A DNA stretch of 64,000 nucleotides. It comes from Escherichia phage RB3. The translations under genes and the position numbers were made by a program. Numbering within the stretch: the first letter of the stretch is position 1; the number at the start of each line of letters is the position of its first letter. Below the pieces are notes generated by a model. The model was not told the DNA's origin. It was given only the letters and a program-made list of their open reading frames with translations, and made no database searches. The stretch is from the sequence record KM606994; one strand, 5' to 3'. Below are positions 47,337-47,684 of the stretch, piece by piece.

Positions 47337-47684
47337 TCAATACGGTTTAGCATCAAATTTTCTTTCGATTTCAGGAGTGAAATATAATTCTTTACCACGT
47401 TTGGAAAAGCGACCAATAATATGATAATTATTCTCATCAAACGTAATATTACCAATATCCATAGCTTTCAACCAAATATCGATATTTCTATCCAGCTTTA
47501 TGTCAAAATTCCAATACGGAGAACTATTACCGAAAATACTGCAAGCGGATTCAGTGAAACAACTACTATAAATCTTGTCTTTAGGAACTACTAATTGATA
47601 GACGCCTTTAATAAACTGAGGACCCTGCCATTTTGGTTGTTTCGCGTCTTTTTCTAATAGAATAGGGTAATAATTAAAATTCAT
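47337..47684 (-). CDS. Hypothetical protein inserted between frd and td
   Basis: 115 aa from ATG at 47684 ([12 protein letters not shown]...); SD GGCGGA; overlaps the 3' end of frd; no motif recognised. Confidence 0.5.

Follow-up and report, generated by a model that had tools for sequence, protein, structure and literature searches.

The td.1 gene between frd and td in Escherichia phage RB3: very probably a long-standing operon resident that T4 has lost

Introduction

In phage T4 the stop codon of frd, the gene for dihydrofolate reductase (DHFR), overlaps the start codon of td, the gene for thymidylate synthase, in a 4-nucleotide (nt) ATGA (NC_000866: frd 145109-145690, td end 145112), and no open reading frame (ORF) lies between them. 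The 64,000-nt stretch of Escherichia phage RB3 analyzed here (record KM606994; hereafter the window) has an ORF at exactly this junction, which raises the question of whether the gene was inserted in RB3 or lost from T4, and of what its product might do. The ORF, td.1, occupies positions 47337-47684 on the minus strand and comprises 348 nt including the stop codon, encoding 115 amino acids (aa). A first-pass annotation made from the sequence alone described the T4 overlap correctly and regarded the ORF, whose strand it left unstated, as a new gene inserted exactly at the junction. The ORF is real, uncharacterized and absent from T4, as the first-pass annotation had it, whereas its insertion, its novelty and an effect on the end of DHFR are not supported. 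The comparisons presented below indicate that td.1 is very probably a vertically inherited resident of the frd-td operon rather than a recent insertion, and that T4 lost it. Taken together with a more tentative proposal that the Td.1 protein is a non-enzymatic binding module, this is the best overall explanation, to which a probability of about 0.55 is assigned.

Results and Discussion

A genuine and previously annotated gene

The nucleotide sequence of td.1 differs at 7 positions from that of phage AugustSocin and at 8 from that of T2H; these differences fall in 15 different codons, and all 15 are synonymous. Orthologues at 63-66% identity, and others down to about 26%, retain the reading frame, the length and the motifs of the protein. 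Because the close differences are synonymous only and the frame and motifs are kept to about 26% identity, td.1 is, on these comparative grounds, a genuine gene and not a chance reading frame; judged by its substitutions, it is under purifying selection. It is preceded by its own Shine-Dalgarno-like motif, GGCGGA (47689-47694, minus strand), four nt 5' of the ATG. In the window this motif falls within an extended frd frame, and in AugustSocin it is also present, but intergenic.

The gene is, however, not new. A 601-nt query spanning the junction matches phages RB5, RB6, RB7, RB9 and RB10 with 100% identity, and the RB5 record carries the ORF as RB5_230, labelled "hypothetical protein". Records of the identical protein come from 341 contigs and have many NCBI accessions, all of which describe it as hypothetical. 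Hundreds of genomes, that of the exact source phage among them, have the gene annotated. It is named td.1 in the T2H GenBank entry AY262132.2 (protein ABI48932.1) and appears elsewhere as RB32ORF229c. All of these are the same gene: the T2H protein is identical to that of the window, its eight nt differences being synonymous, and only the context differs, in that frd of the window reads 11 codons further and overlaps td.1. The protein matches PHROG 1928 ("unknown function") with an E value of 8.4e-36, residues 4-111 aligning with profile positions 2-125 of 126, and a hidden Markov model (HMM) built here from 68 Td.1 members scores 87 bits (E 6.7e-26) on the window protein. td.1 is therefore already known as an annotated family of unknown function that has been in databases for roughly two decades. 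The literature searched contains no mention of td.1 or of its locus tags.

Distribution across T4-like phages

A tblastn search finds Td.1 in 587 phage records. Of these, 361, among them T2, T6 and most Tequatrovirus, reach 90% identity or more, and the other 226 fall below 60%. In representatives of six further genera (Kanagawavirus PEi20, Jiaodavirus KP17, Gelderlandvirus Melville, Marfavirus F48, Moonvirus NM4.3 and Winklervirus CBH8) a Td.1 homologue at 26-45% identity has its start codon at the last codons of frd or inside them, and divergent members also adjoin the DHFR gene in T4-like phages of Erwinia and Proteus. In every genome examined a td.1-family gene adjoins frd; td.1 of the window likewise lies immediately downstream of frd, with td following it. 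A family that directly follows frd in seven genera, of Tevenvirinae and their relatives, is difficult to describe as an insertion at the RB3 junction.

In five of the six further genera td.1 is followed by a second ORF, designated A', a paralogue that belongs to the same PHROG and shares the QxxW and GRFxKxG motifs of Td.1 but has an extra insertion of about 19 residues after the Trp. The fullest array is found on a metagenomic contig whose Td.1 is 63% identical to that of the window: frd is followed by A (Td.1), A', B (69 aa) and td, with overlaps of 4 or 17 nt between successive genes. Successive overlaps of 1-23 nt up to td occur in several genera. Gene B of the contig is 79% identical to a 68-aa ORF between frd and td in phages fPS-2 and D5505; B is present in about 135 Tequatrovirus records and is also found just before td in Marfavirus F48. 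Its coordinates are L010:1591-1797 in fPS-2, L011:3091-3297 in D5505 and L013:4670-4879, at the frd-td junction or before td. The possibility that the 68-aa ORF of fPS-2 and D5505 is a truncated td.1 was rejected, as it is unrelated to Td.1 and belongs to the ancestral array as a gene in its own right. B is a basic protein of 68-69 aa that belongs to phrog_9550 (unknown function) and has no Pfam match; Escherichia phages of about 150 kb have homologues of it at other places, with about 43% identity.

Alignment of the junction across T-even genomes, which the first-pass annotation had proposed, reveals that most carry td.1 or B and few have the direct overlap. Within Tequatrovirus the junction is found in three states: A only in about 361 records, among them the window, T2 and T6; B only in about 135; and empty in at least 32, T4 included. 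The direct frd/td overlap was detected with a 44-nt probe that is seeded only by an uninterrupted overlap, and many of its 32 records are T4 itself or derivatives of T4. As T4 and the B-type phages lack td.1, the gene is dispensable.

Origin of the T4 junction

Given these three states, differential loss from an A-A'-B array is the simplest history of the junction. The direct overlap of T4 appears to be a rare, derived state, a polarity that follows from the distribution of td.1 across genera and not from the junction sequence alone. The junction sequence is nevertheless consistent with a deletion. In td.1-bearing phages TAAATGAAA occurs at the frd stop codon and again across the td start codon, and removal of the DNA between these two 9-nt direct repeats yields exactly the T4 junction, TATAAATGAAACAATACC. 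In the window the left copy, at the end of frd (47703-47710, minus strand), reads AAATGAAA, corresponding to TAAATGAAA in phages without two additional A residues described below, and the right copy, TAAATGAAA, spans the td start codon (47287-47295, minus strand). The T4 junction thus fits a deletion mediated by microhomology.

In the window td.1 coexists with the group I intron of td, which carries I-TevI (45875-46612; td region 45416-47292, minus strand), whereas in T2 td.1 is present and the intron absent, and in T4 the reverse. These combinations indicate that intron homing can be separated from deletion of td.1; in principle, a junction of the T4 type could still be propagated by co-conversion when the intron homes.

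The T4 genome has been reduced on both sides of frd, since two ORFs that lie between frd.1 and frd in the window are likewise missing from it, and T4 has a 71-nt gap there. They encode a 107-aa DUF7247 protein (48555-48878, minus strand; Pfam E 7e-42, phrog_3566) and an 81-aa protein (48288-48533, minus strand; phrog_3183) whose stop codon overlaps the frd start. The broader consequence is a correction of reference-genome bias: the textbook ATGA overlap of T4 is a rare state, and in most relatives the junction holds between one and three small coupled genes. Genome-wide screens conducted in T4 cannot have sampled td.1.

The extended end of dihydrofolate reductase

The frd gene of the window (47674-48288, minus strand; Pfam DHFR_1, E 1.7e-18), delimited by alignment with T4 and AugustSocin, encodes 204 aa compared with 193 aa in T4, and its 3' end overlaps the start of td.1 by 11 nt. 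The C-terminal extension of 11 residues, overlapping the start of the ORF, had been described correctly in the first-pass annotation. It was not caused by td.1; the alignment shows a separate +2 frameshift allele carried by a minority of the td.1-bearing phages. In T4 and AugustSocin frd ends TAT AAA TGA, whereas in the window it ends TAT AAA AAT GAA ATA ACG TGT GGC GGA AAA TAT GAA TTT TAA. The run of A residues is AAAAA in the window (47712-47708) and AAA in T4 and AugustSocin, and the two additional residues place the ancestral stop codon TGA (47707-47705) out of frame. The shifted frame then crosses the Shine-Dalgarno region of td.1 and enters td.1, adding the last 11 codons (47677-47709). 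Most td.1-bearing phages lack the two additional A residues and have a spacer of 20 nt between frd and td.1. The same allele (a span of 91 nt compared with 89 nt) is also present in the independent isolates JB75, PhiZZ30, Phaginator and PSGBLB0006. An artefact of sequencing RB5-RB10 as a batch was considered and rejected, because independently sequenced isolates carry the same allele; the +2 A allele is a real minority variant that is unrelated to the presence of td.1.

Predicted structure of Td.1

Td.1 has a mass of 13.6 kDa, an isoelectric point of 8.5, 20 aromatic residues and a grand average of hydropathy of -0.55, indicating a protein that is hydrophilic overall; the median net charge of the family is +2. 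Searches of Pfam, NCBIfam and PDB sequences, with the single sequence and with the 68-member profile, reveal no relative of known function, in agreement with the first-pass annotation, which recognized no motif or family; PHROG 1928 is the only match. The window protein has no Pfam match at E values up to 1, and when the 68 members are individually compared with Pfam, no family is matched by more than one of them. Exhaustive searching of 1.84 billion representatives with the HMM recovers only 50 clusters, essentially all of 95-148 aa. Three long matches in this search (3337, 3220 and 345 aa) are arrays of He_PIG, Ig_7 and PEGA repeats in which partial matches are summed, and were discarded as noise. 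Td.1 of the window is within this length range and has both family motifs.

With 24 aligned sequences AlphaFold2 models Td.1 at a mean predicted local distance difference test (pLDDT) score of 77.7, and with 68 sequences at a pLDDT of 92.1 and a predicted template modelling score of 0.85. Strands are predicted at residues 6-12, 27-34, 48-50, 62-64, 80-82, 86-96 and 99-104, and residues 68-76 are predicted to form a helix. In the model the order b1-b2-b3-helix-b4-b5 is that of an OB fold, with two short extra strands; the nearest known counterparts of this predicted fold would be the nucleic-acid-binding OB-fold domains (SSB, RPA, PriB, the RecO N-terminal domain, S1, Teb1 and HIN). The predicted fold has no significant match among solved structures, and a Foldseek search of viral models matches only uncharacterized proteins of T4-like phages.

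Across the 68 members the conserved positions are core hydrophobic residues together with Q16, W19, H/K26, G27, Y29, G78, G91, R92, F93, K95, G97 and F102, of which W19, G91, K95 and G97 are invariant in 68 of 68. On the model, the b1-b2 loop carries Q16 and W19 (the QxxW motif), b2 carries H/K26 and Y29, and the b4-b5 hairpin carries G91-R-F-x-K95-x-G97 (the GRFxKxG motif). This alignment has no conserved acidic, Cys or Ser position. OB folds usually bind their ligands through elements of the b1-b2 loop, b2 and the b4-b5 hairpin.

Possible functions of Td.1

The predicted fold and the pattern of conservation suggest that Td.1 could be a single-domain, mildly basic and aromatic-rich beta-barrel of OB-like strand-helix order, serving as a non-enzymatic binding module without conserved residues of catalytic type. 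Its ligand would most probably be a nucleic acid, either single-stranded DNA or RNA, or a partner protein, contacted through the conserved loops. Overlapping reading frames with its neighbors in most genera imply translational coupling, and Td.1 would accordingly in such phages be made together with enzymes of nucleotide-precursor synthesis. This assignment, which depends on a structural model, is tentative and is held with much less assurance than the evolutionary account. A comparable group is that of GoF together with MotB.1 and Frd.2, LSm-like small beta-barrel early proteins of Tevenvirinae for which RNA binding is suspected (PMC12152347). Like Td.1 they are small, phage-restricted and dispensable beta-barrel proteins, and frd.2 is located about 1.5 kb from td.1 in the same frd-proximal region. 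Td.1 differs in having a helix between b3 and b4, as in OB folds, in place of the SH3/LSm topology, and in consisting of one domain without a C-terminal domain; comparison of the Td.1 profile with Frd.2 of the window in hhalign, the only one of these proteins so compared, indicates no similarity (probability 0.2%, E 0.33).

Alternatively, Td.1 may be a host-takeover or anti-defence accessory, as was suggested in the first-pass annotation, that is kept or lost according to the hosts each lineage meets. Its dispensability and its polymorphism in Tequatrovirus (A only, B only, empty) are what such a role would lead one to expect, as is the character of the protein, a small one of a single domain that is restricted to phages and lacks any housekeeping homologue; many small early proteins of T-even phages act in this way, injected proteins being one documented case (PMC12373910). 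A fixed position and retention at 26-45% identity over seven genera would, however, be unusual for cargo of fast turnover, and no described family is matched in Pfam, NCBIfam or the PHROG categories, a search that included no dedicated anti-defence library. The same study, in which accessory genes were screened, is silent on the frd-td region. An anti-defence role is considered rather unlikely, and the computations themselves neither support nor exclude it. It is less probable again that Td.1, with A', is a dedicated partner of DHFR, thymidylate synthase or both, and serves the thymidylate cycle or the deoxyribonucleoside triphosphate (dNTP) synthetase complex as adaptor or regulator. The invariable adjacency of td.1 to frd, mostly within an overlapping chain frd-A-(A')-(B)-td that implies coupled translation, is the attraction of this idea, but the dNTP-synthetase complex was defined in T4, which functions without td.1, as do the B-type phages, and synteny among T4-like phages is generally conserved regardless of function. 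A more specific version, in which Td.1 and A' are unrecognized coupled partners of DHFR and thymidylate synthase and form an OB-like adaptor through which the thymidylate cycle is tethered either to nucleic acid or else to the dNTP-synthetase complex, is slightly more doubtful still; if it were true, the adaptor would have been overlooked because T4, the phage used to define the complex, deleted the whole array.

Two further explanations carry far less weight. The annotation of td.1 as a homing endonuclease in AugustSocin, KarlGJung, FriedrichMiescher and FelixPlatter would make it a free-standing gene of that class or a remnant of one, and its presence or absence between conserved neighbors in close relatives, typical of such intergenic elements and shared with segG and mobE, lends this some plausibility in a neighborhood rich in these genes (SegG, I-TevI, MobE). 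Yet none of the 68 members matches a GIY-YIG, HNH, LAGLIDADG or PD-(D/E)xK domain at E values up to 1, and the family has no conserved acidic, His or Cys residue. At 115 aa Td.1 is much smaller than the products of segG and mobE and too small to contain both nuclease and DNA-binding domains, and it has a tandem paralogue; its locus is fixed across genera, and its divergence appears vertical, without sporadic spread. With no nuclease domain or catalytic residue and a fixed locus, the homing endonuclease reading is very improbable and was rejected. The remaining explanation, a chance open frame that is never translated, has the least probability of all and may be regarded as negligible. Although td.1 of this phage is known from sequence alone, substitutions that are synonymous in 15 of 15 cases, retention of the frame and motifs to about 26% identity in 50 representative clusters, a confident fold obtained from a co-varying alignment, and a Shine-Dalgarno-like motif at the correct spacing are all difficult to reconcile with a frame of no consequence.

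Annotation corrections

Td.1 is a reasonable, non-urgent target for the cataloguing of T-even genes of unknown function; useful outcomes of the analysis are the corrected polarity, the reconstructed A-A'-B array, a confident fold model and several annotation fixes. The label "putative homing endonuclease" for td.1 in the BASEL records MZ501052.1, MZ501089.1, MZ501066.1 and MZ501065.1 is unsupported, as is "putative glucose-1-phosphate adenylyltransferase" in the Salmonella phage record NC_054937.1. In Citrobacter phage NM4.3 (PV400811.1) a 109-aa Td.1 homologue with intact motifs (L008:2480-2809, plus strand) is not annotated, and a 41-aa antisense ORF (2501-2626, minus strand) is annotated instead, which looks like a gene-calling error. 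Gene B of F48 is annotated only as a truncated ORF of 129 nt. The 107-aa DUF7247 ORF is annotated in AugustSocin and D5505 and missing from the RB5-type records. Pseudomonas phage vB_PSGBLB0006 (PV654520.1) and Proteus phage Isf-Pm2 (OL741432.1) are about 97-98% identical in this region to Tequatrovirus of E. coli, and their deposited hosts are Pseudomonas aeruginosa and Proteus mirabilis; the host labels or isolate identities may deserve a check.

Surrounding features of the window

A search of the window with the 68-member profile finds no second copy of td.1. A scan of Rfam yields no family above threshold; a Yar_1 match was rejected as a chance hit (25 bits compared with a gathering score of 50), and at E values up to 0.1 the td intron is not reported, presumably because the I-TevI ORF interrupts it. 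Promoter-like sites number 13 compared with 10.5 ± 2.9 expected from shuffling, and are thus not above chance. Between td.1 and td there is a spacer of 44 nt (47293-47336, minus strand), the leader of td noted in the first-pass annotation, which contains a Shine-Dalgarno-like AAGG for td (47302-47299) folds no better than shuffled sequences (z 0.11) and has no promoter signal beyond chance. It is followed by td exon 1 (46741-47292, minus strand; Pfam Thymidylat_synt, E 1.3e-64), delimited by the RB5 annotation; the td ORF as listed runs on into the intron. These genes belong to the T-even nucleotide-precursor cluster that occupies about 45-51 kb of the window on the minus strand, in the order gene 32, frd.3, frd.2, frd.1, the two small ORFs, frd, td.1, td, nrdA.2 and nrdA.1.
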